Assembly: GCA_016715645.1 (NCBI GenBank)
Contig: JADJZR010000008.1
Location: forward strand, 48,241-112,240
DNA length: 64,000 nucleotides
Reading direction: 5' to 3'
Origin: Elusimicrobiota bacterium
GTDB taxonomy: Bacteria; Elusimicrobiota; Elusimicrobia; FEN-1173
The notes beneath the pieces are model-generated. The model was not told the DNA's origin, did not search any database, and worked only from the letters and a program-made list of their open reading frames with translations. The position numbers and the translations under genes are program-made. Positions 12,187 to 43,622 of this stretch are shown here, one piece after another. The stretch's first letter is position 1; every line of letters begins with the position of its first letter.

Positions 12187-12261
12187 ATGAAATTCAACGT
12201 CGCCGTCCTTGTCGAGAGCAGGGAGCCTAATGTCATCAAAGATTTTGAGAAACCACGATGA
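12187..12261 (+). pseudogene. 24-codon remnant of an MDR alcohol-dehydrogenase N-terminus (MKFNVAVLVESREPNVIKDFEKPR*)
   Basis: Close match to the N-terminus of the intact dehydrogenase at 13843 (MKFKAAVLVESRNPLVIEELE). It is terminated by TGA, which overlaps the ATG of the next gene. Confidence 0.5.
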
Positions 12262-20739: not shown

Positions 20740-20748
20740 ACAAAGGCC
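20740..20748 (+). repeat. 9-bp target-site duplication (acaaaggcc), right copy
   Basis: See the left copy; it lies 3 nt upstream of the ATG of the downstream aminotransferase. Confidence 0.7.
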
Positions 20749-20751
20749 ATT

Positions 20752-21864: not shown

Positions 21865-22571
21865 TGGTGGATTCAAAAAAAGTCGCTGTTTTGGGATTTC
21901 AAGAAGGAGTTGCCGGTCAGGTGGACTCATGGTTTGAAATGGCCACGGGCCTTCAGATTTCTTGTTTTGTCCTTGAGGCGGATGATTTTCCCCCGATTGA
22001 CGTCGAGGCAGAAAATAGAAAACGTGTTTCCCAGCGAATGGAGTATCCAACAAAAGGCCAGTACAAAGGACGCCCCTTTATTATCGCGCTGGATTGGGCG
22101 AAGCATTTGAAAAGGCTTGGGATATCGAAAGTTCTCCCACTCACTCCGGATAACCGGGTTCGGTTTCATCAATTGGAGGTGTGTCATCAAGAAGGTTTTC
22201 AATTGATTTCCGCTATTCATCCAAGTGTAATCATTCTTCCCGGGGCCACGATCCAACCAGGGGTATGGATTAATGCGGGCAGTATCATCGGATATAAATC
22301 GGAAATTGAGGAAGGCGTCTTTATCAATACGGGCGTGAAGATTGACCACCATAACGTTTTAAAGCGGTGTTGTCAGGTGGACCCCGGCGTGGTAACGGCT
22401 GGGAATGTGACACTTCGGGAGTGTAGCCACGTTCATACCGCCGCCACCCTTATCAATCGTGTTGAAATTGGGGAAGACGCGATCGTGGGGGCGGGGGCGG
22501 TGGTCCTCGATTCAGTTCCGCCAAAAGTGGTCACGGTGGGAGTTCCATCGAAAGTGATTCGCCATGTCTAA
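21864..22571 (+). CDS. Sugar N/O-acetyltransferase, NeuD/PglD family (hexapeptide-repeat left-handed beta-helix)
   Basis: N-terminal Rossmann-like VAVLGFQEG followed by hexapeptide repeats (IGEDAIVGAGAVV). Confidence 0.65.
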   Translation: MVDSKKVAVLGFQEGVAGQVDSWFEMATGLQISCFVLEADDFPPIDVEAENRKRVSQRMEYPTKGQYKGRPFIIALDWAKHLKRLGISKVLPLTPDNRVRFHQLEVCHQEGFQLISAIHPSVIILPGATIQPGVWINAGSIIGYKSEIEEGVFINTGVKIDHHNVLKRCCQVDPGVVTAGNVTLRECSHVHTAATLINRVEIGEDAIVGAGAVVLDSVPPKVVTVGVPSKVIRHV

Positions 22572-24426
22572 GCTAAAAATTGGTTTGAGTTCATTGCTGA
22601 GCAATCATACGACAAAAGACATTTTCCTGCTCATTGGTGTGTATTTCTTAAGCTATGGGTTTATGTTGTTGAATCCGGGTATTTATTGGGACGACTGGTT
22701 TATATCAACACACACTTTGCCAGACCTAATTAGTCATTGGGGAATGTGTGGCGGGAGTTTGTTCATTCGGATTCATCATGGCATTCTCGGTTATGATAAT
22801 GCTGTTTTAATTTTCCGTTTGCTCATCTTCACGGCTTATTTTTTGGGGATGATTTTCTTTTACTTGTTTTTAAAAGAAATAAAAATACTCGGAGGATCAA
22901 AGCCATTTTGGTTATGTCTGCTGATCTCCGTATATCCTGTCAGCCAGGGAAGATTGGCTTTGATTCTAACTTATAATGCTTGGAGTTATTGTTTTTTTGC
23001 CTTAGGTTTGTGGTTGACATTGCTCTGGGTTCGTCGCCCGAACCTTGTATTTCGATGGGGGGCGCTTTTATCCTTTAATCTTTCTTTCTTCACCAATTCA
23101 TTCTTAGTCATTTACGCCGTTGTCCCTCTCCTCTTGCTTGGGGATTCAATTAAAAAATTCCCCAAGAATCTCCGGTCAATATGTATTGATGTATTGAAAC
23201 GGGTTGATTTTTTTGTTCTGCCGTTGTTATTTTGGCTAGCGAGATTGAAGTATTGGTCGCCGGACTCAGGTTCAGGTTACAATGAGATCGTATTCATGCC
23301 ATTACAAGTGCTCTTCATACAATTTACCAAGGCTTTCCATTCTTCATTTTTAGGTGTTTTTGAACTCCTTTTTGGTAGGCTGGACGGGTCACTGTCTCGA
23401 AGTGTGTTGTTCGCAGGCGCTTTCGTGCTATGTTTTAGAGCATTGATGGAAAAAGTGGGGGACACGAAGTGGAAGTTTGTCGCCACTGGATGGGGGCTTC
23501 TCTGTGTCGCCTCCTATTTTTATGTGCTTTACCCGTTTCCATATGTGGATGGATTTCCCGCCTCGGATTTATTTTTAATAATCACATGTCTTTTCGTTTT
23601 CGGGGAAACTTTTGAGACTGAAACCCTTGAGCCTGTTCAAAGGAACGAGGAACTCATGAATTGCGGATTGATACTCTGCGGTGCTTTCCTTTTCCTATTG
23701 GGGGTGTACCCCTACATTGCAGTCTGGAAGGTTCCCCGCCCGGTGGATTTTGATTCGCGTTACGAACTCATCGTTCCGTTCGGCGCTGGTTTTATGGTTT
23801 ATGGAACGGTTTGCCTTGTGGGTTCTCATTTTAAGTTTCGAAAGATTTACAACAAAATCTTATTAAGCACGTTGATCATTTTCTTTGTTGGATTGAATGT
23901 CAGGAGTTTATTTTTGTGGCAGTGTGATTACTACAAACAATGCGCCATTATGGCGCGCCTTCGTGTGATCCCTCCCCCCGTTTTTGATTCAAAGATAGTG
24001 GTGGTTGACGATGAAACAGGTGCAATTAATGCGTGGGGGCGAAAGTATTATCACTATGAATGGGAAGGGTTCATTCGTTTCGCTCTAAATAGTGATGAAC
24101 AGATTGGAACGGACTATAGGAATTTTAAGTGGATGGACTACCGGGGTGTCAGGAGAAAAGGGGGAGAATCAAAATTGATCGTAAGAAACACCTATGGGCG
24201 TCACCATCGACCCTGTCTTATCATCACAGCCCCTCCGCTTTCTCCGTTCGAGGAGCAGGAGAGCTCCCTCTCCTTCCCATCGAGATTTCGAAAGGATTGC
24301 CTGCGCCTCCTGTGGCTCGAACTGTTTTATCCGGAGGATTTCCAGAAAAAAATTGGTCAAATGCTTGATTTGAAATGGATTTGCACGTGTGAAATAAATG
24401 AAAAAAATCGCCATCGTTCAATCTAA
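22564..24426 (+). CDS. Polytopic membrane protein with C-terminal soluble domain; candidate GT-C glycosyltransferase/polymerase
   Basis: At least 11 hydrophobic segments over the first ~450 aa, then a ~170-aa hydrophilic tail. No specific family recognised. Confidence 0.35.
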
Positions 24427-25093
24427 TTATATTCCGTGGAAGGGCTACTTTGATTTGATTGCGGCTGTCGACGAATTTATCTTATATGATGATGTTCAAT
24501 ACACCCGGCGGGATTGGCGAAATCGGAATCAAATAAAGACTCCGCGGGGAGTGGAATGGATGACCGTGCCCGTGAAGGTCAAGGGTCGGTTTGAACAAAT
24601 CGTTCGCAAGACGGAGGTCGATGGGGTGAAATGGGCAAAGGATCACTGGAAATCGCTCGTGCAAAACTACCGATCCGCCCCTTGTTTTGGCGGAATAGCA
24701 TCCTGGCTTGAGCCACTTTACCTCAATGAGGAATATACCCACCTTTCGCAACTGAATCATCGGTTTATGAGCGCCATCTCCTCATTCCTTGGAATTACAA
24801 CACCGATTCGCCATTCGAGGGATTACCCCTTGTCGGAAGGCCGATCGAAACGATTGGCCGAGCTTTGTGTGTCCGTGGGGGCGACCGAATACATATCGGG
24901 TCCTGCAGCCAGAGAGTACATCGACGAAACCGTGTTTGCCGCACGTGGTATCACGCTAAAATGGTTCGATTACGCCGGCTATCCGGAGTATCCTCAACTT
25001 TGGGGGAAATTTGTTCATGGGGTTTCCATCCTGGATTTGTTGTTCAATTGCGGGAAGGACGCTCCACGATACATGAGGTATGTGCGATCATGA
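24398..25093 (+). CDS. WbqC-family protein
   Basis: [48 protein letters not shown] is diagnostic of the WbqC-like family. Confidence 0.7.
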
Positions 25094-26016
25094 AACTATC
25101 CATTGTTTCGACCCTTTATCGATCGGCTTCTCACCTTCCCGAGTTTTACTACCGTTCCAGCCAAGCCGCCCAGAAACTTGTTGGGGACGACTATGAGATT
25201 GTCTTGGTGAACGATGGTTCGCCCGATAACAGTTTGGAGATCGCGGTCAGCCTCGCGCAAAAGGACAAACACATCGTGGTTGTTGATTTGTCGCGCAACT
25301 TCGGTCATCACAAGGCTATGCGAACGGGTTTGGAGTATTCCTTAGGGGAGAGAATGTTTCTCATTGACAGTGATCTTGAAGAACAACCCGAGTGGCTCTT
25401 TACGTTTTCTTCGACCATGATGGAGGAATCGGCCGACGTGGTCTTTGGTGTCCAATTGAATCGTAAAGGCAATTGGTTTGAACGATGGAGTGGTTACATG
25501 TACTACTCTGTTTTCAAATGGTTGTGCAATATCCAGCATCCGCGGGATATCGTCACCGCTCGCCTCATGTCACGTCGTTACGTCAAGGCGTTCCTGCAGT
25601 TCCCTGAAAAGGAAGCCCCCATTTCTTGTCTTTGGTTGCTAACGGGATTTAAACAGTGCCAACAGGTTGTGAAAAAACAGATGCGTAGTCCATCGACCTA
25701 CTCCGTACCAAAAAAAATACAACTTGCGATGGACTCTATTACCTCATTTAGTGAGGTCCCTTTAAAGATCATTTTCTATTTGGGGGCATCGATTTTTATT
25801 TGCGCACTTTTTTACAGCGCTTATCTTGTGTTTATTCGTTTGGCGCATTCCCAAGCCGTTGATGGATGGACGTCTGTCATGGTGTCCGTTTGGCTTCTGG
25901 GGGGGGGGGGCATATCATTTATTGGCTTGTTGGGAATTTACATTTCCAAGATATTCCTGGAAGCAAAACAGCGGCCACACGCCATTGTGAGGGAAATCCA
26001 TGGGCGATCTCACTGA
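25090..26016 (+). CDS. GT2-family glycosyltransferase (polyprenyl-phosphate sugar transferase-like; C-terminal TM helices)
   Basis: ATGA overlap start at 25090. [14 protein letters not shown] and DLSRNFGHH (a DxD region). The C-terminal membrane anchor contains the G12 tract. Confidence 0.75.
25899..25910 (+). repeat. Homopolymeric G12 tract inside the GT2 coding sequence (encodes GGGG in the C-terminal TM region)
   Basis: Read directly: ctgg-gggggggggg-cat. Confidence 0.9.
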
Positions 26017-26695
26017 CAACATCAATTCTCGCTACGAACAATTCTATGGAAAGAGAACCGGCCTTCGTGTGTATCCAACGGAATTCGTCGTTCGAACTTT
26101 TTTGGCAAACTATCCAAATTTGACTTTTCCTAAGCCTAGCCCCGGCAATCGTGTGCTTGATGTGGGATTTGGCGATGGTCGGAATACTATTTTCCTCTGC
26201 GATCAGGGTTTTGCCGTGAGTGGTACTGAAATCACACAGGGGATTGTTGATCAGACGAAGGCCAGGGTTCAGAGGTTGGGTTTTCGAGCGGATTTGAAGG
26301 TTGGCAGAAACAGCCATCTTCCCTTCGGCGATGAATTCTTCGACTACCTTCTCGCCTGCCATTGTTGTTATTATTGTGACGAGGGGGTATCTTTTTCTGA
26401 CAACCTAAACGAGTATGCCCGGGTTTTAAAGAGCGGGGCCTATTTGGTGGCATCGGTGGCCAGCCGTTCGTCTTTCATATTCGACCAGGCGGTTGCGCTC
26501 GATGACGGATCGCTTGTCGTTAAGTTAGATCCATACGGTAATCGCAATGGATATCGTTTGCAAGCATTTGACACGAAGGAACAGATCCGCGATTATTTTT
26601 CTCGTTGGTTCAGTAATTTTTCATTCGGGTATGCGGATAATGACTACTATGGTATTTCAGAGCGTGTTTTCTGGGTTGTTTGCCAAAGGATTTGA
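26000..26695 (+). CDS. Class I SAM-dependent methyltransferase
   Basis: VLDVGFGDGRNTIFL motif I. Confidence 0.6.
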   Translation: MGDLTDNINSRYEQFYGKRTGLRVYPTEFVVRTFLANYPNLTFPKPSPGNRVLDVGFGDGRNTIFLCDQGFAVSGTEITQGIVDQTKARVQRLGFRADLKVGRNSHLPFGDEFFDYLLACHCCYYCDEGVSFSDNLNEYARVLKSGAYLVASVASRSSFIFDQAVALDDGSLVVKLDPYGNRNGYRLQAFDTKEQIRDYFSRWFSNFSFGYADNDYYGISERVFWVVCQRI

Positions 26696-26698
26696 GAT

Positions 26699-27676
26699 AT
26701 GAGCAATAATTCTGTCTATTGTTGCATTGAGCCTGCATGTTTAAAGGGGCGTTTAGCTAAAGGCCAAGAGGGCCTTTCTTGTTGTAACGGACATTTTATT
26801 CCATTTATCCCGTCCACGGATGTCCCCGTTTTTAATTGTGACCCGAAAGATTCAAATGAGTATACGCGTTTAAACGCGGGGGAAATACATGAAAATTCAC
26901 TCCGCTGGCTTTTTTCAACTTTTGGCGACGACGAAGTCAGTTTTAGGGAGCGGCTCATTACTCGGCTGTTTCTAAAAAAAGGGTCTCGGGTGCTGGTCAC
27001 CGGCGCGGGAGCTGGTAACGACTTGCCTTTCTTGATCCGCGCGCTGGAGGGAAAGGGAGAAATCTTTGCACAGGACATCGCGAAGGAAATGATCCTTGTT
27101 GGAATTTCTCGATATAAAAATGATTTCCCTCGTTCTGATGTTAATGTGTATTTTTCAGTTTCCGATGCGACTACTCTTCCTTTTTTAGATGATTTCTTTG
27201 ACTCCGCCTACCATTTCGGCGGCATCAACTTGTTTTCGAATATCAAACGCGGTATCGCCGAGATGAACCGTGTGGTAAAGGCGGAGGGGCGTGTTGTGAT
27301 CGGTGATGAAGGACTCGCCCCCTGGCTTACGCGAACCGAATATGGGGAGATGCTGGTTAAAAATAACCCGCTCTATTCTTGTGCGCCTCCCCTCTCGGCC
27401 ATTCCGGAAACAGCGAGGGCGGTTAATCTTTCTTGGGAATTGGGCAATTGTTATTACATTATTGAATTTCAAGTGTCCAAAACCCCCTTATCGATCAATA
27501 TTGATATTCCACACAAGGGCAAGCGGGGGGGCACCCTTCGGACACGCTACTATGGACAACTGGAAGGGGTTGACCCCAACTTACGCGATAGAATTTATGC
27601 GGAAGCGGAGCGGCAGGGTGTCAGCCGGGTTAATTTCCTTGAATCAATTTTGCGTGCATCCCTTCGGGGGGATTGA
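26699..27676 (+). CDS. Methyltransferase-like protein with N-terminal Cys-rich (Zn-ribbon-like) segment
   Basis: An N-terminal Cys cluster (CCIEPACL...CCNGH) followed by VLVTGAGAGNDLPFL (motif-I-like). The C-terminus is unrecognised. Confidence 0.4.
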   Translation: MSNNSVYCCIEPACLKGRLAKGQEGLSCCNGHFIPFIPSTDVPVFNCDPKDSNEYTRLNAGEIHENSLRWLFSTFGDDEVSFRERLITRLFLKKGSRVLVTGAGAGNDLPFLIRALEGKGEIFAQDIAKEMILVGISRYKNDFPRSDVNVYFSVSDATTLPFLDDFFDSAYHFGGINLFSNIKRGIAEMNRVVKAEGRVVIGDEGLAPWLTRTEYGEMLVKNNPLYSCAPPLSAIPETARAVNLSWELGNCYYIIEFQVSKTPLSINIDIPHKGKRGGTLRTRYYGQLEGVDPNLRDRIYAEAERQGVSRVNFLESILRASLRGD

Positions 27677-28641
27677 TGTTCGAAGGGAATGGGATTAAAC
27701 GTTATCTGTCTCAGTCACACCCATTCCCTTGGCAAAAAAGAGGTTTGATATTTGAGCCCGTTGGCTTGGATTATTCGCACGGTAGCCATCCCTGCGCATT
27801 TCATTTAAAAGAGGATCTTTTCCTTATTGCATTCACCCGTCGGGATGCCCAACAACGATCTCACATCTTTTTGTCCCACGCCACGGTTTCTGAAGGTCGG
27901 GTCGTGTTGCATGGAAATCCAACGCTCGCCTTGCGTCCTGGAAATACCGGTTGCTTTGATTGCGATGGGGTCATCAGTGTCTGTTTTGTGGCCCATCAGG
28001 GGCAAACGTATTTGTATTTTGTAGGTTGGCAAAATCTTCCGGAGGGCATGTGGATATGCGACACGGGTCGGGCACGGCTCGATTTCAATCAGCTCACGTT
28101 AACGAAAGAGTTTCCAGGTCCCGTGCTTGGTCGCGATAAATCAAATCCGCTTTTCGCCGCCGCCACAGCTTTCCACATAACGGAGGATGGTCTTTGGCAG
28201 ACGTGGTATAACTCCGGGATTAAATGGGAAAAGACTTCCCAAGGAATGAAGCCTATTTATGGGATCCATTACGCCCACTCATTAGATGGCATTGAATGGG
28301 TTTGTCACCCTGGTTTATGTTTGCCGTTTGCCGATGAATTTGAATATGCATTTGGGCGGCCAAGTGTGGTTAAAGTTGACGATACTTATTTCATGTGGTA
28401 TGCGCACCGTGCCTCGAGGAACATAGATAGTTATCGGATGGGATTTTCCTCTTCAACGGATGGACGTTATTGGTGTCGAAACGATCTCTTGGCAGGAATT
28501 GATGTTTCTGTATCGGGATGGGATAGTGAAATGATTTGTTATCCCTATGTGTTTAGCCATAAGGGATGGATGTATATGCTCTACAATGGAAACGGGTTTG
28601 GGAAAACGGGTTTTGGTTTAGCGGTGCTGGAGCCATCGTAA
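27673..28641 (+). CDS. Beta-propeller protein, glycoside-hydrolase/sialidase-like (GH43/GH130/BNR-type); function uncertain
   Basis: Repeated W/Y-rich blade-like segments and an Asp-box-like SSSTDGRYW. Assignment is by composition and pattern only. Confidence 0.3.
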   Translation: MMFEGNGIKRYLSQSHPFPWQKRGLIFEPVGLDYSHGSHPCAFHLKEDLFLIAFTRRDAQQRSHIFLSHATVSEGRVVLHGNPTLALRPGNTGCFDCDGVISVCFVAHQGQTYLYFVGWQNLPEGMWICDTGRARLDFNQLTLTKEFPGPVLGRDKSNPLFAAATAFHITEDGLWQTWYNSGIKWEKTSQGMKPIYGIHYAHSLDGIEWVCHPGLCLPFADEFEYAFGRPSVVKVDDTYFMWYAHRASRNIDSYRMGFSSSTDGRYWCRNDLLAGIDVSVSGWDSEMICYPYVFSHKGWMYMLYNGNGFGKTGFGLAVLEPS

Positions 28642-29312
28642 TGAAAAGAATCGTTCTGGCGGGCAATGCCATCACCGCAAGGGTTCTTATTCCCCTCTTA
28701 CGGGGTGACAAAAGGTATGAGGTCGTGGGTTTTGTCGTTGATGATGAGTTTCTTATAAAGGAGAGCCGTGAGGATTTTGCGACTGTGGGAATGTCTCGCG
28801 TTAGAGACGTCTATACTCCCAATCAGTGTCGGGTGGTGATGGCGGTCGGCTACAACGACCTTAACCGTGTGCGTGAATCCTTGTTTGCCCGACTCAAGAG
28901 CATGGGATATGAAATGGAGACCTACGTCCATCCGGACGCGCGGGTCTATACCGCACATCCGCTTGGCGAAGGTTGTGTCGTGTTTCCCGGAGCAGTGATT
29001 GAACCGGAAGCGTATCTCGGCGCCAATACCATGGTCTGGAGCAACGTGACTCTCGCGCACCACAGTCGTGTGGCGGAAAACTGTTGGATCGCCGCAGGGG
29101 CCGTTATTTCAGGACAAGCCAAGGTGTTGCGAAACACGTTTGTTGGTGTGAATGCAACGGTGGTCAACGACGTTACTGTGGGAGAGTACAATATTGTGGG
29201 AGCAAATGCCCTCATTTCCAAAGACACAAAACCTCAATCCGTTCATTTGGCTCGCTCAGCGGAAACTGTGCGGTTTTTGGCGGAAGATTACAAGAAGTTT
29301 TTCAGGATCTGA
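28641..29312 (+). CDS. Sugar acetyltransferase, NeuD/PglB family (hexapeptide repeat)
   Basis: ATG at 28641 (TAATG overlap). MKRIVLAGNAITARVL Rossmann-like N-terminus and hexapeptide repeats (VGVNATVVNDVTVGEYNIVGANALI). Confidence 0.65.
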   Translation: MKRIVLAGNAITARVLIPLLRGDKRYEVVGFVVDDEFLIKESREDFATVGMSRVRDVYTPNQCRVVMAVGYNDLNRVRESLFARLKSMGYEMETYVHPDARVYTAHPLGEGCVVFPGAVIEPEAYLGANTMVWSNVTLAHHSRVAENCWIAAGAVISGQAKVLRNTFVGVNATVVNDVTVGEYNIVGANALISKDTKPQSVHLARSAETVRFLAEDYKKFFRI

Positions 29313-29313
29313 A

Positions 29314-29553
29314 ATGAATAAACGGTTGGCTTCGATCCTTGCCGAAGTGTTTCATATTCGAGAAACTGAAATTCATCCTAAACTTACCAAAGCCGATGTG
29401 GGGGCTTGGGATTCCTTAAAACAAATGGATTTAGTCGTTGTCCTGGAAAGATCCTATGGGATCGAATTAAGCATCCCCGACATTCTTCGAATGGGATCGG
29501 TTTCTGCCATCATGGATGTGTTGAAGGAAAAAGGGGTGAACCTTGGAGATTAG
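29314..29553 (+). CDS. Acyl/peptidyl carrier protein (stand-alone, DltC/ACP-like)
   Basis: 79 aa. The GAWDSLKQMDLVVVLE segment contains the conserved DSL phosphopantetheine-attachment serine in a 4-helix-sized protein. Confidence 0.65.
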   Translation: MNKRLASILAEVFHIRETEIHPKLTKADVGAWDSLKQMDLVVVLERSYGIELSIPDILRMGSVSAIMDVLKEKGVNLGD

Positions 29554-30283
29554 AGGGACCGTCGCATTGGTCACGGGAGGGGCTCAGGGATTGGGATTGG
29601 CCATTGTGAACCATCTGGTCGCACTGGGGGCCACTGTTATTGTCGCTGACCGGGACGACCAGGCAATCAAAAAGCTCCCCAAAAATTTGGAGGCGGTCCA
29701 CATGGACGTCACCCAAGTCGAGTCGGTCAGGACCGGGGTGGCGGGCATTGTCGACCGTCACGGTCGTCTCGACATACTTGTAAATAATGCCGGGGTGATA
29801 TCGAGCGAGCCATTTGTAAACATAATGAATCCCGCAGGAATCATGCATGATTACGGGCGCTTCCGTGAATCCATCACGGTAAATTTGGATTCAGTTTTTA
29901 TCGTTACCTCCGCTGTGGTGGAGTTTATGGTCAAACGCAGGACCAAAGGTGTTATCGTTAATATCAGCTCCATCAGCGCTTGCGGCAATGAAGGACAAAC
30001 GGCCTATTCGGCCGCCAAAGCGGGAGTAGACGCTATGACGGTCACCTGGTCAAAAGAATTGGGCCCCTGGGGAATTCGTTGTAATGCCGTGGCTCCCGGC
30101 TTTATCGGAACAGAATCCACCCGCCGCGCCTTAAAGGAACCCATTCTGAAACATATCCAAACAGACACGCCTCTGGGGCGACTGGGGGATGCTCACGAAG
30201 TGGCTCAAACCGTCGGTTTTGTCATTCAAAATGACTTCATCAACGGCGCCGTCTTGAATGTGAACGGAGGGTTGAGAATATAA
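29543..30283 (+). CDS. Short-chain dehydrogenase/reductase (FabG-like 3-oxoacyl reductase)
   Basis: TGGAQGLGLAIV (TGxxxGxG); NNAG; catalytic YSAAK. Confidence 0.8.
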   Translation: MEIRGTVALVTGGAQGLGLAIVNHLVALGATVIVADRDDQAIKKLPKNLEAVHMDVTQVESVRTGVAGIVDRHGRLDILVNNAGVISSEPFVNIMNPAGIMHDYGRFRESITVNLDSVFIVTSAVVEFMVKRRTKGVIVNISSISACGNEGQTAYSAAKAGVDAMTVTWSKELGPWGIRCNAVAPGFIGTESTRRALKEPILKHIQTDTPLGRLGDAHEVAQTVGFVIQNDFINGAVLNVNGGLRI

Positions 30284-30284
30284 A

Positions 30285-31073
30285 ATGATCAAATTGACAA
30301 GCTCACATTATCCCCAGGCGTACGAGCTTTATTACCAGCATAAAGCGTTCTTCCCAATAATTGCTGGGGTATTGCTTTGTGAGCAAGATGGTGTTGTCTA
30401 CACCGACAATCTTGCTGTGCCCAGTCAATTCTATGTGGAGCATACTTTTGGATTTGCACAGATCTTCGGTTTGCCGGTTTTTCCTTTTGAGGCGGACTTA
30501 CGCGATTATCTGTTCTATCGCCGGGATTTTTTGTCCTCAAAAGTTCGGTTGTATACGCCAAATCATCCAAGCTTTCTGGAATCGCCGGAATGGGAAAGAT
30601 TGTGTTCCAAACGTCAACGATTTACTCTTTCTCCTTTTGGTGACATGAGGGTCGAAAAGTTGGGTGGACTTCACTTCCCACAAACCGTTGAAATTGAAGA
30701 CGTAGATAGCAGCAATGTCGAGTTGATCCAAAAACATTTCGGTGTGGTTAGCCGATTTTGGCGAACGGCCGGAGACTTTATTTCTAAGGGTAAACCTGTT
30801 GTGGCCTTCTTTAAGGGAATTCCAGCCGCCATTTGTTACGCCGCTGCTGTTGCAGATGATCAGGCGGAAATTGATGTGTTCACTGTCCCTGATTACAGGT
30901 GTTTGGGATTAGGGAGGTTGGTTGTTCAACTTTTCCTTAAGCAATGCCAGTCTACAGGGATGATACCGGTTTGGGATTGCTTCATTAACAATGTCGGTTC
31001 GATGGCCCTATGTCAATCGACTGGTTTTGTCCCGGCCGGTGCCCCCTACCCGTTTTTTACAATTGCCAAATAA
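30285..31073 (+). CDS. Hypothetical protein with C-terminal GNAT-like acyltransferase fold
   Basis: RCLGLGRLVVQLF resembles GNAT motif A (R/Q-x-x-G-x-G/A). The N-terminal half is unrecognised. Confidence 0.35.
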   Translation: MIKLTSSHYPQAYELYYQHKAFFPIIAGVLLCEQDGVVYTDNLAVPSQFYVEHTFGFAQIFGLPVFPFEADLRDYLFYRRDFLSSKVRLYTPNHPSFLESPEWERLCSKRQRFTLSPFGDMRVEKLGGLHFPQTVEIEDVDSSNVELIQKHFGVVSRFWRTAGDFISKGKPVVAFFKGIPAAICYAAAVADDQAEIDVFTVPDYRCLGLGRLVVQLFLKQCQSTGMIPVWDCFINNVGSMALCQSTGFVPAGAPYPFFTIAK

Positions 31074-31093
31074 ATTTTTATACTGGACACCTT

Positions 31094-32644
31094 GTGTTTC
31101 CTCATTATTTTAACCTCGGTGTTCCTTTCGCTCAAATCCTGGCAACTTACGCCACGCATACGGCTCTTCACTATTCGGAGAGGGTGTATCGCTACGAGAC
31201 ACTAAGTCAATGGATGGATTCTCTTTGTGCATTGTTGTTAGTCCGTGGGGTGAAAAAGGGAGATGTCATTGCCATCGCCCATACCAAACAGCCCCTGGCC
31301 TACGCATTAATGCTGGCCGGGATTCGGTTAGGGGTGACTTACGTTATCATCGATGTTGCGTCCCCCGCCACACGCCTCCATCGGATTCTTGATATCAGTA
31401 AACCTTCCCATCTTTTTTTCGATGACCCGGGTGACCAAAAGGCGATGTCTGATTTAGCAGAAAAGCAGGGTTGCCCCTTGTGGTTGTTGGAGGAAGCCAC
31501 TTTGCCTGAGGTGACCGATGCTGATCGGACTGAGCAGCATCGTCTTTCTCGGTTGGTGGATGGATCCTGTATCGCTTACATTATGTTTACCTCGGGATCA
31601 ACCGGAGTGCCCAAAGGCGTTGCCATCACCCACCAGAACGTGCTGCACTTTATCGCCTGGGGCCAAGAACGCTTTGGTATTACCGAAAAAGATAATTTTG
31701 CGAATCTGAGTCCGATGTTCTTCGACAATTCCGTTTTTGATTTTTTTGTCGGCCTATTTTCTGGGGCGTCGCTCTCCCCTGTGCGTCGTGAAGTTCTGAC
31801 GAATCCATATGAATTAGTCCCGTATGTGGGCCGGATGGGTTGCACCGTATGGTTTTCGGTTCCCTCGTTGCTCATTTATCTTATGACCATGAAGGCGCTG
31901 ACGCCGGGGTCTCTGCCAGCTTTGAGAACCATCGTGTTTGGTGGGGAAGGGTATCCCAAGGTCGAGTTGAAGAAGCTCTATGATCTCTTTTCAAGGCAGG
32001 CCACACTCGTTAATGTATATGGCCCAACAGAATGCACGTGCATTTGCAGCAGCCACTCACTGGGGGCGGACGATTTTATCGACCTAGAGGGCTTGCCAAC
32101 ACTGGGGTTTCTTAATCCAAACTTCGATTATCGTATCTTTGATGAACAAGGCCGGGATGCCACCCGTGGAGAGCTGTGTCTGATTGGTCCGAACGTGGGG
32201 GCCGGCTATTTCAATGATCCGGAGCTTACCGGTTCAGTTTTTCGCACCCTTATGGACTCCAATCGTTTCATGAAGCGCATGTATTGTACTGGCGATCAAG
32301 TGCGAGAGGTTAATGGAAGACTTGATTTCATTGGAAGGAAAGATAACCAAATCAAACATTTGGGCTATCGCATTGAATTGGAAGAAATTGAGTGTGCGTT
32401 GCTGAAACTGACCCACGTGCATCAGGCCGCGGTGGTCTACCACCGTGTGAATGCCGCTTATGGAAAGCTGGTAGCTTATGTAGCTTCTTCCGAGCCATTA
32501 GACGGTGGTGATTTGCTCAAAGCACTAGCCAGGTCCCTGCCTGATTATATGGTTCCCAGCAAAGTCTTTGTGATGTCGAAATTGCCGATAAACCCAAATG
32601 GAAAAGTTGACCGTTTGACCCTGCGGGAAATGTTAGACAATTAA
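31094..32644 (+). CDS. Stand-alone adenylation (AMP-binding) domain enzyme, NRPS-A/DltA-like carrier-protein ligase
   Basis: GTG start inferred at 31094. YIMFTSGSTGVPKGV (A3 core), YGPTE (A5), YCTGDQV (A7), GRKDNQIKHLGYRIELEEIE (A8), PNGKVDR (A10). Confidence 0.75.
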   Translation: MFPHYFNLGVPFAQILATYATHTALHYSERVYRYETLSQWMDSLCALLLVRGVKKGDVIAIAHTKQPLAYALMLAGIRLGVTYVIIDVASPATRLHRILDISKPSHLFFDDPGDQKAMSDLAEKQGCPLWLLEEATLPEVTDADRTEQHRLSRLVDGSCIAYIMFTSGSTGVPKGVAITHQNVLHFIAWGQERFGITEKDNFANLSPMFFDNSVFDFFVGLFSGASLSPVRREVLTNPYELVPYVGRMGCTVWFSVPSLLIYLMTMKALTPGSLPALRTIVFGGEGYPKVELKKLYDLFSRQATLVNVYGPTECTCICSSHSLGADDFIDLEGLPTLGFLNPNFDYRIFDEQGRDATRGELCLIGPNVGAGYFNDPELTGSVFRTLMDSNRFMKRMYCTGDQVREVNGRLDFIGRKDNQIKHLGYRIELEEIECALLKLTHVHQAAVVYHRVNAAYGKLVAYVASSEPLDGGDLLKALARSLPDYMVPSKVFVMSKLPINPNGKVDRLTLREMLDN

Positions 32645-32671
32645 AGGGGTCGGAGGTATGGCTTTGAGGAA

Positions 32672-33550
32672 GTGTCCGTGATTGTCTGTCCCTCTTGTGG
32701 ATCGACAGAAATAAACCCGCAAGTCGGGTGTGCCTGTTGCGGGTTCAAAACCATGCGTGTGGATGGTTTCCCAGCCTGGGCGACCGATCTGACAAAACGG
32801 GATGAAGGGTTTTCCGCCCAAAATTTTGAAAGGCTAGCACAGGTTGAGGCCGATTCATTTTGGTTTCGGTCCAGAAATGCGCTTATCCTGTGGGTGATTC
32901 ATAAAGATGTTCACCGAATCGGGTCCTTGCTTGAGGTTGGGTGCGGCACGGGTTTTGTTCTGGCCGCTATTGCGAAAAAATTCCCGGGCGTGAGAATCGT
33001 GGGGGCCGATACCCATACAGCTGGACTGTCATTTGCTGCCCATCGTGTGCCCACTGCCGAACTTCTCCAAATGGACGCTCGGCAACAAATTTTCGTGGAC
33101 GAATTTGATGTAATAGCCGCATTCGACGTTATTGAGCACATACAGGAAGACGAAACAGTCCTTCGTAACTTCCACCGAGCGATTAAACCCGGTGGGACAT
33201 GCCTGATCACAGTCCCCCAACACCCCCGGTTGTGGAGCTCAATTGACGAGGAATCGTGCCACAAGAGGCGCTATCGCTCCAAAGAACTTCATGAAAAATT
33301 GGAATCGGCCGGTTTCCGAATTGTTCGAAGCACTTCTTTCGTCACCTTTCTATTGCCTTTTCTTTTTCTCTCAAGGATGACCACAGGAGTCATTGGTAAA
33401 AAGGTGAATGATCGGGCTCTCCATCTGAACCCGTTACTTGATATCGTTCTGGAGGCGGTCATGTTTTTGGAACGCCAACTAATCAAACTTGGGTTTTCAT
33501 TGCCCCTGGGGGGGTCACGGCTCGTGGTGGCTGTGCGAAAAGATGATTAA
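32672..33550 (+). CDS. Class I SAM-dependent methyltransferase with N-terminal Zn-ribbon
   Basis: CPSCGS...CACCGF followed by LLEVGCGTGFVL motif I. GTG start. Confidence 0.6.
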   Translation: MSVIVCPSCGSTEINPQVGCACCGFKTMRVDGFPAWATDLTKRDEGFSAQNFERLAQVEADSFWFRSRNALILWVIHKDVHRIGSLLEVGCGTGFVLAAIAKKFPGVRIVGADTHTAGLSFAAHRVPTAELLQMDARQQIFVDEFDVIAAFDVIEHIQEDETVLRNFHRAIKPGGTCLITVPQHPRLWSSIDEESCHKRRYRSKELHEKLESAGFRIVRSTSFVTFLLPFLFLSRMTTGVIGKKVNDRALHLNPLLDIVLEAVMFLERQLIKLGFSLPLGGSRLVVAVRKDD

Positions 33551-33748
33551 CCTCTCCGAATCAGCCCGATCGCCTAGTGGCTGGACTCTGTCTGCCCGCG
33601 ATGGGGTCATCCTGTTTCGCTGCTTTTCGAAATGGTTAACCAAAAGAATTCAGTTGACGGAGCACTTGCGTCCGGGAGGGTTCATTAATTCTGCTCCAAT
33701 CACTGTCGACGGTAGCCCCGCTCCAACCGGGGAATCCCGGTTAATCAA

Positions 33749-34894
33749 ATGAATTCAGATATTATCCCATTCAATCGTCCATATTTGACGGGAAAGGAAC
33801 TTTCCAATATTTCCCAGGCGTATTCCAATTCACAACTGGCGGGGGATGGGCCCTTTTCTCGGCGTTGCCATCAATGGCTTCAAAAACAAACAGGAAGTAA
33901 GAGCGCTTTGTTAACCCATTCGTGCACGGCAGCGCTCGAGATGGCCGCGTTGTTGCTTGATATTTGTCCTGGTGATGAAATCATAATGCCTTCATACACT
34001 TTTGTTTCAACCGCCAACGCTTTTGTCCTTCGGGGGGGAGTCCCTGTGTTTGTCGATATTCGGTATGATACACTCAATATTAATGAGCAATTAATTGAGG
34101 TGGCCATCACATCACGAACGAAGGCCATAGTCGCCGTGCACTACGCCGGGGTGGCCTGTGAAATGGATTCAATTCTTGCTGTTGCCAAACGACATTCGGT
34201 TAGAGTCGTGGAGGATGCGGCGCAGGGAGTGATGGCGAGATACAAAGGGCGGCCCCTGGGGAGTCTTGGAGATCTTGGCGCTTACAGCTTTCATGAAACC
34301 AAGAACGTGATTTCCGGAGAAGGGGGGTGCCTGCTTGTAAATAATCCGGAATGGGTGACGCGGGCAGAAATTCTCAGACAAAAAGGGACAGACCGGAGTC
34401 GTTTCGATCGTGGAGAAGTTGATCGATATACCTGGAGGGATATGGGGTCTTCATTTCTTCCAGGTGAATTAACGGCGGCTTTCCTATGGGCTCAATTGGA
34501 AGAGGCAGATCAAATCACTCGAGAGAGAGTGAAAATTTGGCGTCGATATCAGGATCTGACATTAACCTGGGAAGAGAAGGGCGTGCTGCGTCGACCCGTT
34601 GTGCCGCAAGATTGTCAGCATAATGGCCACACATTTTTCGTCCTTTTGCCGGATGGCGTAGACAGGAAAATGGTTATCAAGGGGCTCTCAGATGAAAGAA
34701 TCAACGCGATATTCCATTTTGTCCCTCTCCACTCATCCCCTTACGGAAAGGCTCGCGGTCGCACCAGTGGACCCATGACGAACACGGAAAATCTTTCGTT
34801 AAGGATTATTCGACTTCCCCTGTGGATCGGAATGACCAACGATCAACAAACGCGGGTTGTGGAAACTTTAGGAAACATGCTCACGCGGCGATGA
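33749..34894 (+). CDS. wecE: dTDP-4-amino-4,6-dideoxygalactose-type sugar transaminase (WecE/RffA-like DegT family)
   Basis: Very close to the E. coli WecE pattern throughout: IPFNRPYLTGKEL...GDGPFSRRCHQWL...LLTHSCTAALEMAALLLDI.PGDEIIMPSYTFVSTANAFVLRGG.PVFVD...HYAGVACEMD...VVEDAAQGVM..YKGR.LG...FHETKN...GEGG. Confidence 0.8.
   Translation: MNSDIIPFNRPYLTGKELSNISQAYSNSQLAGDGPFSRRCHQWLQKQTGSKSALLTHSCTAALEMAALLLDICPGDEIIMPSYTFVSTANAFVLRGGVPVFVDIRYDTLNINEQLIEVAITSRTKAIVAVHYAGVACEMDSILAVAKRHSVRVVEDAAQGVMARYKGRPLGSLGDLGAYSFHETKNVISGEGGCLLVNNPEWVTRAEILRQKGTDRSRFDRGEVDRYTWRDMGSSFLPGELTAAFLWAQLEEADQITRERVKIWRRYQDLTLTWEEKGVLRRPVVPQDCQHNGHTFFVLLPDGVDRKMVIKGLSDERINAIFHFVPLHSSPYGKARGRTSGPMTNTENLSLRIIRLPLWIGMTNDQQTRVVETLGNMLTRR

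Positions 34895-36874: not shown

Positions 36875-36878
<4 letters not shown>
35628..36878 (+). CDS. Hypothetical protein (possible glycosyltransferase of the O-antigen-locus TIGR04372-like type); family not confidently recognised
   Basis: One N-terminal hydrophobic segment, 416 aa, no canonical motifs identified. Confidence 0.25.
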
Positions 36879-39952
<3,074 letters not shown>

Positions 39953-39956
<4 letters not shown>

Positions 39957-40741
39957 TCCTGGGTATCGTTCAGGCGAGGATGGGCTCTTCTCGTTTACCG
40001 GGAAAAACCCTCATGCCAATCGTCGGTCGTCCAATGTTGGAACTTCTTCTTGAACGTGTGAGACGTTCTCGCCTATTAAACCGGATCGTGGTGGCGACAA
40101 CTCAGGAACCGGAAGATCTCGCGATTGCGAACTTGTGTGAAAAGCTAGGGATAGGTTGTCAGAGGGGATCGACCCACGATGTGCTGGACCGATTTTACCA
40201 GGCTGCTCGTTTCTGCCACCCCTTGCATGTAGTCCGAATCACGGGAGATTGTCCCTTGATTGACCCGACTCTTATCGACGAAATGATTGAATTTTATATC
40301 CATGGAGAATTTGATTATGTGAGCAACGCCCTTATCCCATCGTTTCCAGACGGCCTCGACGCGGAAATCTTTCGTTTCGCTGTTCTTGAACGGGTTTGGA
40401 GGGAAGCCACTCTTACATCGGAACGGGAGCATGTGACCCCTTTAATTTACAAACATCCGGAGATCTTTCGCGTGAAAAATTATTCGAGCATTCAAGGTCT
40501 TTCTTCTTTGCGCTGGACGGTTGACGCACACGAAGATTTCCTTTTCGTCTCGCGCATTTTCGAGGCTCTTTATACTTTTAACGCCGCATTTGGTTATACG
40601 GATGTGTTGGATCTCCTCCACCGCCATCCGGAACTTTTGACTTTGAATGCTCGGTTTAGGCGAAACGAGGGTTATGCCCATTCTTTAGAAACAGATCTTC
40701 CCTTCCAAGGACAGGTTAACAAAGGAGGATTCAATGGTTAA
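39953..40741 (+). CDS. pseF: Cytidylyltransferase of the acylneuraminate-CMP-transferase/SpsF family (candidate CMP-pseudaminic acid synthetase)
   Basis: MILGIVQARMGSSRLPGKTL (ATGA overlap start). Co-located with pseB/C/G/H/I. Confidence 0.6.
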
Positions 40742-43101: not shown

Positions 43102-43622
43102 ATCAGGGGATAAGACTTCAAGAATATAATTCGGCGTTTGATCGATCGACCGTGCGCTGGTTGAATTATCCCAGTGTTCGGCGAGGGTTTGGTCTAACTT
43201 ATCGGATATCTTTGTCGTCGCACCGTCAATGGAGGCGGGGGCAGAAAAATCTTCTGTTTTGGGGAATTTTGGATGAAAAGGGACGTCACCAGGGGAATGT
43301 TTTGGTTCATTGCAACCCTCGTCATCGAAGTGGTTATCTGCAGATGTATATTGGCAGCCCACGCAAAAGAGGGAAAGGTCTCGGACAAGGAGCTTTGGTG
43401 GCTGCGTTGGATGACCTATTTTTTCGAAGAGGATTCCATCGCGTTTGGTTGCATACGCTTTGTCGAAATTCCCGCGTTGAAAAATTTTACCGTAGACTGG
43501 GGTTTTCTTCCGAGGGGGTTGAAAGAGGGTCTTTTTTTCGTGCGGGTCGCTTTGAGGATCAACGCCGTTGGTCTATACTTGCCTCAGAATGGAGAAAAAA
43601 CCCAGGTCGCACGATACAATGA
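43098..43622 (+). CDS. pseH: GNAT N-acetyltransferase (PseH-like)
   Basis: 174 aa GNAT with RGKGLGQGAL motif A. It directly follows pseG with a GTGA overlap. Confidence 0.55.
   Translation: MNQGIRLQEYNSAFDRSTVRWLNYPSVRRGFGLTYRISLSSHRQWRRGQKNLLFWGILDEKGRHQGNVLVHCNPRHRSGYLQMYIGSPRKRGKGLGQGALVAALDDLFFRRGFHRVWLHTLCRNSRVEKFYRRLGFSSEGVERGSFFRAGRFEDQRRWSILASEWRKNPGRTIQ

Follow-up and report, generated by a model that had tools for sequence, protein, structure and literature searches.

What does a stand-alone adenylation enzyme, equipped with a carrier protein of its own, do in the middle of a glycan locus? The question is raised by positions 29314-32644 of a 64-kb stretch of DNA (the window, i.e., the whole stretch analysed) from an Elusimicrobia metagenome-assembled genome (MAG), in which the adenylation (A) enzyme and a WbqC-family protein are 100% identical to NCBI records of Elusimicrobia origin. 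A previous reading, made from the sequence alone, had described this segment as a DltA/DltC-style module that activates an acid, tethers it to a carrier, optionally reduces it and installs it as a non-acetyl N-acyl group on an amino sugar or on pseudaminic acid (Pse). Our analysis supports the architecture underlying that proposal—an A enzyme, a dedicated carrier and tailoring enzymes among glycan genes—and places it in a larger frame. The four genes are not autonomous; they constitute the acyl-donor half, at the centre, of a 13-gene cassette spanning window positions 22564-34894. We consider it likely that the module supplies a carrier-bound acyl group, derived from an amino acid, to the amino sugar of the cassette.

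The acyl-donor genes and their predicted chemistry

Segment 29314-32644 holds four co-directional, tightly packed open reading frames (ORFs) on the + strand, each with domain matches of its own: a carrier protein, a short-chain dehydrogenase/reductase (SDR), a GNAT-type acetyltransferase and the A enzyme (Table 1), exactly as the sequence-only reading had listed them. The gene immediately upstream, encoding a left-handed β-helix (LbH) acyltransferase, stops at 29312, and the carrier gene starts at 29314; in the same way, the SDR gene stops at 30283 and the GNAT gene starts at 30285. The carrier and SDR genes share an 11-nt overlap, which is found identically in 36 other loci. The genes of the carrier module, the LbH gene included, are translationally coupled, and their arrangement is far beyond chance, since the identical order recurs in dozens of unrelated genomes. 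These loci come from a search with two family-specific peptides in 185,579 species, each represented by one genome, which identified 188 species with a relative; 80 loci were fetched, the cassette families were profiled with hidden Markov models and all locus ORFs were scored. The counts given throughout refer to loci with enough flanking DNA—44 of a main family and 14 of a sister family. The LbH gene lies directly upstream of the carrier gene in all 44 of the main-family loci, so that the unit is larger than the four genes around which its boundary had been drawn.

The A enzyme resides in a long ORF (31010-32644), with GTG 31094 as the actual start, because the NCBI annotation of the identical protein (AMP-binding protein [Elusimicrobia bacterium], 516 aa) matches and the orthologues align from this codon. 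Both PF00501 (224 bits, 3.3e-66) and PF13193 (32.5 bits, 1.7e-7) were matched above cutoff, and TIGR01733 was narrowly missed (291.5 bits, cutoff 317.4). The core motifs A3 (FTSGSTGVPKG, residues 165-175), A5 (NVYGPTE, 307-313), A7 (YxTGD, 397-401), A8 (GRKDNQIKHxGYRIELEEIE, 414-433) and A10 (PxNxNGKVDR, 498-507), from which a non-ribosomal peptide synthetase (NRPS)-type enzyme had been recognized earlier, can all be read, together with A4 (FDNS, 210-213), and are invariant in 12 orthologues. The closest PDB relatives are both A domains of LgrA (best, 3e-101), the prolyl-carrier ligase PltF and DltA, with AlmE (4oxi) also among the matches. We therefore read the protein as an apparently divergent, stand-alone branch of the amino-acid-activating A domains.

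To assign the specificity positions, we anchored on motifs A4, A5 and A10 with GrsA numbering. Read by hand in this manner, the ten-residue code is D-N-F-F-V-G-V-C-I-K, where Asp235 corresponds to D211 (in FDNS) and Lys517 to K504 (in NGKVDR), and it was kept as DNFF[V/I/S/T/A/L]GVCIK in 81 of 81 A-enzyme homologues, those with 43-48% identity included. Asp235 (GrsA numbering) is the ligand of the α-amino group; the invariance of Asp235 and Lys517 thus argues for an α-amino acid as the substrate, and the invariant code points to one and the same amino acid across all homologues. The nearest textbook code is that for Ile (DGFFLGVVYK), and the code is unlike those known for DltA, Gly, Ala, Ser, Thr, Pro and Cys. 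The pocket residues Phe239, Phe278, Val322 and Ile331 make for a shallow, hydrophobic site, Asn236 being unusual, and our guess would be a Thr/Val-like substrate.

The 79-aa carrier matches PF00550 (31.1 bits, cutoff 20.8), and the attachment serine previously noted in its DSL motif is the predicted phosphopantetheine site Ser34, part of a W32-D33-S34-L35 sequence that is invariant in 67 of 67 homologues. The protein scores below every AcpP and DltC equivalog cutoff (DltC, 18 bits vs 68). The 246-aa SDR is the best conserved protein of the cassette (73-78% identity). It matches PF00106 (164.7 bits, 2.4e-48) and carries a T11-G-G-A-Q-G-L-G18 cofactor motif; the YSAAK motif reported earlier (Y155-S-A-A-K159), S142/S143, N149 and Asp36 at the end of β2 are invariant in 71 of 71 homologues. 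By kinship, i.e., with the FabG homologues 4nbu and 4nbw and human 3-hydroxyacyl-CoA dehydrogenase type II (HSD17B10, 1so8) as its closest PDB relatives, the SDR is predicted to be a 3-hydroxy/3-oxo-acyl-thioester oxidoreductase. It is not FabG itself, whose equivalog cutoffs it does not reach (TIGR01830, 198.6 bits vs 297.75; NF006072, 221.7 vs 298). According to the SDR cofactor rule, an Asp at the end of β2 marks the use of NAD(H) rather than NADPH, and the invariant Asp36 therefore predicts an NAD(H)-type enzyme, more likely NAD-linked than similar to biosynthetic FabG. The step had been described as an optional reduction, a term that does not fit a core enzyme missing from a single main-family locus. 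In one gammaproteobacterial MAG, we also observed an apparent in-frame fusion of carrier and SDR (L060:8244-9212, 322 aa); we rejected it as Rosetta-stone evidence, since many cassette genes are split in the same MAG and a sequencing indel is the probable cause.

Between the SDR and the A enzyme lies a 262-aa tandem-domain GNAT of the PamZ/ZmaR family (PF12746, 63.9 bits against a cutoff of 26, 2.4e-17, residues 32-249), and PF00583 (2.3e-6, residues 170-248) covers the C-terminal part in which a GNAT-like fold had been suspected. Its best PDB match is PamZ (7b3a), an enzyme that acetylates an N-terminal amino group; no match to the WecD models was found. The GNAT is the least conserved protein of the cassette (47-55% identity), and the slot that it fills is exchangeable: each main-family locus has either the GNAT or an Fmt-like formyltransferase of ~290 aa (Formyl_trans_N plus Formyl_trans_C), never both and never neither. 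Cassettes with the formyltransferase occur in Thiocapsa roseopersicina, Labrenzia, Sulfuritalea, a Desulfovibrio MAG and others. A free primary amine is classically capped with either an acetyl or a formyl group, and the exchange fits the capping of a free amine at this point. Between the two kinds of acyl group originally offered, hydroxy-acyl or aminoacyl, this exchange and the invariant Asp235/Lys517 pair favor the aminoacyl group over the hydroxy-acyl one. We also tried the relatives of the formyltransferase as a discriminator between the capping of an amino acid and that of a sugar. Met-tRNA formyltransferase and the F domain of LgrA (5.5e-12), which both formylate the α-amine of an amino acid held on a carrier, rank first in the profile search, with VioF and PseJ close to them (2e-11 vs 1.5e-12); this approach was abandoned, as the sugar N-formyltransferases fall within one order of magnitude.

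The probable acceptor sugar and conservation of the cassette

The LbH acyltransferase is of the NeuD/PglB/VioB type (TIGR03570, 154.2 bits, just under the cutoff of 160.8; PF00132, 58 bits). Its closest PDB relatives—PerB, a GDP-perosamine N-acetyltransferase (4ea7, 2e-15), PglB, PglD and VioB (7txp)—are all N-acetyltransferases of 4-amino sugars, and its His143, invariant in 61 of 61 homologues, aligns with the residue changed (H to N or A) in PerB mutant entries. We propose this enzyme as a candidate carrier-protein-dependent N-acyltransferase that acts on a dTDP-4-amino sugar. It is most likely the transferase of the module, in place of the GNAT, which would be a replaceable capping enzyme. 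The sister family bears on this assignment: nine of its cassettes have neither a GNAT nor a formyltransferase, and in the five of these that were examined gene by gene, the LbH enzyme is the sole acyltransferase beside the aminotransferase. A role for the GNAT or the formyltransferase as the sugar-amine acylase is hard to reconcile with these loci, where the LbH enzyme must acylate the sugar amine, if anything does.

The identity of the sugar follows from the aminotransferase, which passes the WecE equivalog cutoffs (NF008687, 579 bits, cutoff 375; TIGR02379, 578 bits, cutoff 434.85) and is 65-67% identical to the copies in orthologous cassettes; on this basis, the cassette sugar should be a dTDP-4-amino-4,6-dideoxyhexose (Fuc4N or Qui4N). 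In line with the original proposal, the module most plausibly installs a non-acetyl N-acyl group on an amino sugar; pseudaminic acid is not supported as the acceptor. The Pse genes of the window (PseC/PseB, 36875-39042; PseI, 46548-47636) form a separate neighboring pathway, and the orthologous cassettes lack Pse genes. The acyl acceptor is most likely, judging from these gene contents, the dTDP-4-amino-4,6-dideoxyhexose of the cassette itself.

The cassette has a shared gene order—multi-transmembrane (TM) protein, WbqC, GT2 glycosyltransferase, methyltransferases MT1 and MT2, β-propeller protein, LbH, carrier, SDR, GNAT, A enzyme, GtrA, (MT3), aminotransferase—that holds in Pleomorphomonas oryzae, Variovorax sp. 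KK3, Pseudomonas sp. MAC6 and the 44 complete loci. For most cassette proteins, the Elusimicrobia copy shares 60-78% identity with those of Alpha-, Beta- and Gammaproteobacteria and Desulfobacterota; against the proteobacterial copies, the range is 59-74% for all window proteins other than the membrane protein and the GNAT (47-52%). Metagenomes are rich in close A-enzyme homologues (64-71% identity), which also occur in cultivated Proteobacteria. The main family (A enzyme 54-71% identical) comprises Alpha-, Beta- and Gammaproteobacteria (e.g., Legionella quinlivanii, Thiocapsa roseopersicina, Neorhizobium vignae, Bosea lupini, Labrenzia and Roseomonas), Desulfobacterota (Desulfovibrio, Syntrophobacteraceae, Desulfarculales), Bdellovibrionota and one Chlamydiia MAG. 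The sister family (A enzyme 43-48% identical) was found in Accumulibacter, Arcobacter, Sulfurimonadaceae, Crocinitomicaceae, Acidobacteriota and others. Both families keep the A enzyme, carrier, SDR and LbH enzyme, which therefore represent the deep functional core, set in a context of WbqC, propeller and aminotransferase genes (Table 1).

Moreover, a simpler cassette exists in which the acyl-donor genes are missing. In Pseudomonas koreensis and Caballeronia cordobensis, the order is membrane protein, WbqC, GT2, methyltransferase, LbH, (GH43-related protein), a 124-aa EamA-like protein and WecE-type aminotransferase. WbqC homologues at ~70% identity far outnumber those of the A enzyme, and the simple cassette is apparently much commoner than the A/carrier cassette. 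By analogy, it looks like an ArnC/ArnE-style system that would transfer an N-acyl 4-amino-6-deoxyhexose onto a surface acceptor. Between the simple and the window cassettes, WbqC (71-72%), the aminotransferase (67-69%) and GT2 remain similar (56-72% for the three proteins taken together), whereas the LbH enzymes share only 29-30% identity. The sugar and lipid-carrier part is hence constant while the LbH enzyme co-varies with the acyl donor, as would be expected if the latter enzyme reads the donor.

Table 1. Genes of the cassette in the window and in related loci, with their occurrence in complete loci of the two families (positions without prefix refer to the window; those with an L number refer to the locus so numbered; MT, class I S-adenosylmethionine-dependent methyltransferase; PLP, pyridoxal phosphate).
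Feature	Position	Strand	Basis or remark	Main family	Sister family
Polytopic membrane protein, 620 aa	22564..24426	+	Hydropathy: at least 9 TM helices in first ~450 aa, ~170-aa C-terminal domain
WbqC-family protein	24398..25093	+	PF08889 1.4e-80	37/44	11/14
GT2 glycosyltransferase, polyprenyl-phosphate type (ArnC/GtrB/PgfS-like)	25090..26016	+	PF00535	40/44	6/14
MT1, accessory	26000..26695	+	PF08241, PF13649	36/44	2/14
MT2, UbiE-like core, Cys-rich N-terminus	26699..27676	+	PF13847, PF01209	36/44	10/14
Cytosolic β-propeller protein, 322 aa, related to GH130 β-mannoside phosphorylases	27673..28641	+	Profile search	44/44	12/14
LbH acyltransferase, NeuD/PglB/VioB type	28632..29312	+	TIGR03570, PF00132	44/44	14/14
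Dedicated acyl/peptidyl carrier, 79 aa, predicted site Ser34	29314..29553	+	PF00550	44/44	12/14
Classical SDR, FabG/3-hydroxyacyl-thioester dehydrogenase type, 246 aa	29543..30283	+	PF00106, PF13561	43/44	13/14
Tandem-domain GNAT (PamZ/ZmaR family), 262 aa	30285..31073	+	PF12746, PF00583	37/44	
A enzyme, stand-alone NRPS-type, 516 aa	31094..32644	+	PF00501, PF13193, core motifs		
GtrA, next gene after A enzyme	e.g., L003:11562-11969, L004:11561-11968		PF04138	29/44	2/14
MT3, N-terminal Cys4 motif, accessory	32672..33550	+	PF08242, PF13489	23/44	
WecE-type PLP aminotransferase	33749..34894	+	NF008687, TIGR02379	39/44	11/14
Formyltransferase in GNAT slot	L016:9129-10004, L023:8890-9765, L024:8912-9787, L026:9126-10004, L042:9121-9990, L054:9107-9994		PF00551, PF02911	7/44	
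Simple cassette, Pseudomonas koreensis	L085:8424-14634		A, carrier, SDR, GNAT genes absent		
Simple cassette, Caballeronia cordobensis	L086:8406-15474		A, carrier, SDR, GNAT genes absent		

A proposed route and its competitors

The cassette as a whole points, by analogy, to an undecaprenyl-phosphate-linked decoration in the periplasm, an aspect absent from the sequence-only reading and suggested by the ArnC/PgfS-like GT2, GtrA and the polytopic membrane protein. The top NCBIfam matches of GT2 are PgfS (167 bits, 4.8e-49) and ArnC (124 bits, 4.7e-36), both under the equivalog cutoffs; the protein has two C-terminal TM helices (residues 235-253 and 267-285) and is 66-67% identical to its counterparts in orthologous cassettes. 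The membrane protein is the variable part of the cassette and a putative GT-C-like transferase of a lipid-linked sugar. A multi-TM gene of 520-780 aa stands at the cassette edge in other loci, with only ~30% identity over short stretches.

Bringing these elements together, we propose that the product of the cassette is an N-(modified aminoacyl) 4-amino-4,6-dideoxyhexose, which would travel on polyprenyl phosphate to an acceptor at the cell surface, a full chain to which we give slightly better than even chances. The A enzyme would adenylate one α-amino acid and load it onto Ser34 of the carrier, and the NAD(H)-type SDR would oxidize or reduce the tethered residue, the simplest case being a hydroxyl/keto conversion at the β-carbon. 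The PamZ-like GNAT may then acetylate the α-amino group of the residue, with the Fmt-like enzyme formylating it instead in one sixth of the cassettes, as the exchange within the slot suggests. The LbH enzyme would subsequently use the loaded carrier to acylate the 4-amino group (N-4) of the dTDP-4-amino-4,6-dideoxyhexose, and the methyltransferases, WbqC and the GH130-like propeller might tailor the sugar or the acyl group. Finally, the ArnC/PgfS-like GT2 would place the sugar on undecaprenyl phosphate, a GtrA-type protein would flip the lipid-linked sugar and the polytopic membrane protein could pass it to lipopolysaccharide (LPS) or another periplasmic acceptor, by analogy with the Arn, Gtr and Pgf systems.

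Several points weigh against this route, of which every step beyond domain assignments, conserved residues and gene associations is inferred. The A-enzyme code matches no textbook code known to us, and Ile, the nearest, would offer the SDR no obvious task. We know of no enzyme of this LbH subfamily that uses an acyl-carrier protein; LpxA and LpxD do, yet they are distant from the NeuD/PglB/VioB enzymes. The NeuD branch of TIGR03570 also includes O-acetyltransferases. A scan of window ORFs revealed neither RmlA nor RmlB among those covered. The 620-aa membrane protein belongs to no detectable family (no Pfam or NCBIfam match, even at E<=1), its GT-C role being inferred from position and topology. 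GtrA is missing from the window at 32644-32672, where most orthologous cassettes have it, and no GtrA-like ORF was detected by tblastn within the 64 kb; the window cassette may rely on a flippase whose gene lies elsewhere, or it may be defective. Moreover, the formyltransferase is almost as similar to sugar N-formyltransferases as to its first-ranking relatives, and the enzyme in the GNAT slot could cap the sugar amine instead.

The last point leads to the strongest competitor, in which the 4-amino group of the dTDP-sugar receives its cap from the GNAT or the formyltransferase, in the manner of WecD, VioB and VioF, and the LbH enzyme esterifies a sugar hydroxyl from the loaded carrier, giving a Dlt-like ester. 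Besides the O-acetyltransferases of the NeuD branch, it can draw on the formyltransferase profile, in which the dTDP-Qui4N formyltransferases, VioF and PseJ come only slightly behind Fmt and the LgrA F domain (NF005755, 40 bits), on the parallel between the GNAT/formyltransferase exchange and the Qui4NAc/Qui4NFo alternatives, and on the usual pairing—established for the enterobacterial common antigen pathway—of WecE-type aminotransferases with a sugar acetyltransferase. However, the nine sister cassettes devoid of a GNAT or formyltransferase still keep the A enzyme, carrier, SDR, LbH enzyme and aminotransferase, with no other acyltransferase in the five inspected. The nearest solved relatives of the LbH enzyme, moreover, are N-acetyltransferases without exception, with the catalytic His kept; in the simple cassettes, the LbH enzyme is again the sole candidate N-acyltransferase; and the GNAT sides with PamZ/ZmaR rather than WecD. 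Such O-aminoacylation is, on balance, unlikely.

Much less probable still is a specific variant of the amide route. In this scenario, the module would build 3-hydroxy-3-methyl- or 3-hydroxy-2,3-dimethyl-5-oxoprolyl (pyroglutamoyl) lactams from threonine. The SDR would oxidize carrier-bound L-Thr with NAD+ to the 2-amino-3-oxobutanoyl thioester—the amino analogue of the 2-methyl-3-hydroxybutyryl-CoA reaction of HSD17B10—after which a methyltransferase could C-methylate the activated α-carbon and the GNAT would N-acetylate the amine. Attack of the acetyl methyl group on the 3-keto group (an intramolecular aldol reaction) would close the lactam, which the LbH enzyme would pass on to the 4-amino sugar. 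This variant uses every conserved enzyme of the acyl branch and would explain the obligatory NAD(H)-type SDR. Against it, the A-enzyme code is not canonical for Thr, and cassettes with a formyltransferase could not cyclise their product. Vibrio, Plesiomonas and Campylobacter coli bear substituents of the 5-oxoprolyl kind on Qui3N, Fuc3N and viosamine (PMC10609480; bioRxiv 10.1101/050328).

The alternative of a hydroxyacyl group has marginally poorer prospects. The supposed A domain would here be a short-chain acyl-carrier synthetase, the SDR would reduce a 3-oxoacyl-carrier to the 3-hydroxyacyl form (e.g., 3-hydroxybutyryl, the most frequent non-acetyl N-acyl substituent of amino sugars) and the LbH enzyme would transfer it to the sugar amine. 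The viosamine island of Pseudomonas syringae uses a ketoacyl synthase and a reductase for such a group, and the best relatives of the SDR are indeed FabG homologues and a 3-hydroxyacyl-CoA dehydrogenase. 3-Hydroxybutyryl groups are also common on Qui4N and related sugars (PMC10609480). Nevertheless, the A enzyme is of the NRPS type, with best PDB matches that are all amino-acid-activating and with Asp235 and Lys517 in every homologue; no cassette contains a ketosynthase or a thiolase; an obligatory amine-capping slot would have no role on a hydroxyacyl group; and Asp36 of the SDR is the signature of NAD(H), not that of the NADPH used by biosynthetic FabG. Lastly, that the four genes are unrelated to the sugar, and serve a small NRPS-like metabolite or the aminoacylation of lipid A or another lipid as in AlmEFG, is highly improbable: stand-alone A/carrier pairs do serve many pathways, AlmE being among the PDB matches here and AlmEFG a Dlt-like precedent on Gram-negative LPS (PMC4278540), but these genes are translationally coupled to the LbH gene and never occur away from the set of WecE-type aminotransferase, WbqC and propeller in 58 complete loci of two divergent families, no cassette has a condensation or thioesterase domain or an LpxL/AlmG-like acyltransferase, and the Pseudomonas sp. 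MAC6 cassette is self-contained.

Accessory genes, related systems and significance

Among the remaining genes of the proposed N-aminoacylation cassette, WbqC is conserved (66-71% identity in orthologous cassettes). No PDB relative was found by phmmer or with a 24-sequence profile, and an AlphaFold2 model built from 26 homologues was poor (pLDDT 60.6), with no Foldseek match in the PDB at E<=0.001. The sole hint on its function is a Shewanella gene beside dTDP-Qui4N genes that is annotated as a putative glycine transferase (PMC7253198). We considered WbqC as the aminoacyl transferase of the module and rejected it, as the protein is equally conserved in the cassette lacking the A enzyme and carrier and has a paralogue in the Pse-type cluster of the window. 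This second copy (43568-44314; PF08889, 212 bits) lies between a GNAT gene (43098-43622) and a methyltransferase gene (44336-45259), in a cluster that also holds a cytidylyltransferase gene (39941-40741). Its position shows that WbqC proteins accompany different amino-sugar pathways. The propeller profile (24 homologues) matches the 1,2-β-oligomannan phosphorylase 9fj8 at 1.9e-13, and a homologue with 39% identity occurs in the simple cassette of Caballeronia. In the proteobacterial cassettes, the gene in this slot encodes a 318-aa protein with no Pfam match. MT1 is absent from the Desulfovibrio subgroup. Some sister-family cassettes carry extra tailoring genes, including one for an acetolactate-synthase-like thiamine diphosphate (ThDP) enzyme in a Sulfurimonadaceae MAG (L067:6424-8235), a sulfotransferase in an Arcobacter MAG and a FemAB-like Acetyltransf_6 protein (L065:12197-13051 and L084:8009-8944), a hint that the acyl group or the sugar is chemically diversified further.

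With 12-14 genes, the cassette is compact and, to judge from its distribution, clearly horizontally spread and mobile. In Pseudomonas sp. MAC6, it forms an island between unrelated genes. The glycan region of the window (16000-54000) has a GC content of 44-50%, with 53-62% in the flanks, and an IS4/DDE transposase gene (DUF4372 plus DDE_Tnp_1; 19437-20636, - strand) sits directly upstream of the cassette region; the GC contrast is consistent with horizontally acquired islands. A tblastn search for plasmid carriage in PLSDB retrieved only generic NRPS domains at 32-34% identity. We also looked for a link to the aminoacyl-Qui4N O-antigens of E. coli (O121, O123): a blastn search of 5,426 E. coli genomes with a low-GC orthologue gave no match, a nucleotide-level result compatible with distant homologues. 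The two genes directly upstream of the membrane protein gene encode another DegT-type aminotransferase (20737-21864) and another hexapeptide acyltransferase (21864-22571); this pair is outside the conserved cassette elsewhere and probably makes a different N-acetyl amino sugar. Farther upstream, at 8082-9880 and 12258-13712, the window has two more features: a split transketolase-like pair (N-terminal ThDP domain; pyrimidine-binding plus C-terminal domains) inside the sugar-gene region, and a Schlafen/AlbA_2 plus HATPase_c_4 protein encoded between glycan genes.

How does the cassette relate to known systems? With Dlt, which D-alanylates teichoic acids, and AlmEFG, which places glycine on Vibrio cholerae lipid A, it shares a stand-alone NRPS-type A enzyme and a small dedicated carrier in the service of envelope decoration. 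The DltA/DltC label therefore holds as an analogy and fails as membership, and we regard the cassette as no Dlt orthologue on the available scores: the A enzyme falls far below the DltA equivalogs (TIGR01734, 276.6 bits vs 559.85; NF003417, 287.8 vs 476), the carrier misses DltC and neither DltB (an MBOAT protein) nor DltD was found among the window cassette genes scanned, the slots in other loci all being filled by the families listed here. The specificity code also differs from that of DltA as read in the Bacillus subtilis sequence. The LpxL-type AlmG, too, has no counterpart in the cassette; AlmE and AlmF represent a Dlt-like pair acting on LPS in V. cholerae (PMC4278540). Unlike in both systems, the partner is an LbH acyltransferase of the nucleoside diphosphate (NDP)-sugar type, with an SDR and an amine-capping enzyme in between, and the proposed acceptor is a cytoplasmic nucleotide sugar instead of a polymer or lipid A.

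The parallel in O-antigen biosynthesis is the rfbK-rfbO region of V. cholerae O1, reportedly proposed in the genetics of the 1990s to make and attach the 3-deoxy-L-glycero-tetronyl group of N-acyl-perosamine, a pathway that to our knowledge has never been reconstituted. That region likewise combines a carrier, an AMP-forming ligase, oxidoreductases and a hexapeptide-repeat acyltransferase in an O-antigen locus for the N-acylation of a 4-amino-4,6-dideoxyhexose; it differs, in a comparison made by description only, in its hydroxy-acid acyl group, its acyl-CoA-synthetase-like ligase and its lack of amine capping and of a GT2/GtrA branch. In butirosin biosynthesis (BtrI/BtrJ/BtrK/BtrO/BtrH), an amino-acid-derived acyl group is assembled and tailored on a dedicated carrier and joined to an amino sugar as an amide, with the amine transiently capped, whereas an ATP-grasp ligase does the loading, the transferase BtrH lies outside the LbH fold and the acceptor is an aminoglycoside of secondary metabolism. 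The F-A-PCP module of LgrA (linear gramicidin), in which the A enzyme has its best PDB match and the formyltransferase one of its top matches, formylates the α-amine of an aminoacyl-S-carrier, but it is part of a multidomain megasynthase that feeds condensation domains; the cassette proteins are separate, include no such domain and would pass their product to a sugar. PerB, PglB, PglD and VioB share the fold family and the catalytic His with the LbH enzyme; acetyl-CoA is the donor in PerB, VioB and PglD, whereas the LbH gene of the cassette is always coupled to a carrier gene. The three-component Arn, Gtr and Pgf systems resemble the cassette in the ArnC/PgfS-like GT2 and in the GtrA and polytopic proteins of most orthologous loci, and differ in that the membrane protein matches no GT-C family model and GtrA is missing from the window. 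None of these systems joins an NRPS-type A enzyme and carrier to a PerB/VioB-type acyltransferase, together with an obligatory SDR, an interchangeable acetyl or formyl cap and a lipid-carrier cassette.

We know of no demonstration of an A/carrier-fed route in this LbH subfamily, for which acyl-CoA donors are the only ones known so far. A search of the full-text literature, with subscription journals largely beyond reach, returned no description of the cassette or of A-domain/carrier-dependent N-acylation of NDP-sugars, and no biochemical characterization of aminoacyl-amino-sugar genes was found in the searchable literature. In a review of E. coli O-antigens, the only gene assignment for an aminoacyl group is a putative one, the Lea3 'alanyltransferase' (PMC7685785). 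The structures themselves are well documented, in that many O-antigens, capsules and glycoprotein glycans carry amide-linked glycyl, alanyl, seryl, allo-threonyl or aspartyl groups (also in N-acetylated, N-formylated or N-hydroxybutyrylated form) or lactams on their amino sugars, Qui4N and Fuc4N among them (PMC10609480).

Aminoacyl and lactam groups on amino sugars dominate serological specificity, and the cassette is a widespread, compact candidate for the amide linkage of amino acids to the amino sugars of bacterial surfaces. Since cultivable strains are among its carriers (e.g., Pseudomonas sp. MAC6, Variovorax sp. KK3, Pleomorphomonas oryzae DSM 16300, Legionella quinlivanii, Thiocapsa roseopersicina DSM 217, Neorhizobium vignae and Bosea lupini), both genetics and glycan chemistry are feasible. 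If the proposed route is true, the cassette would also give glyco-engineers a portable module for placing non-acetyl N-acyl groups onto deoxy-amino sugars.

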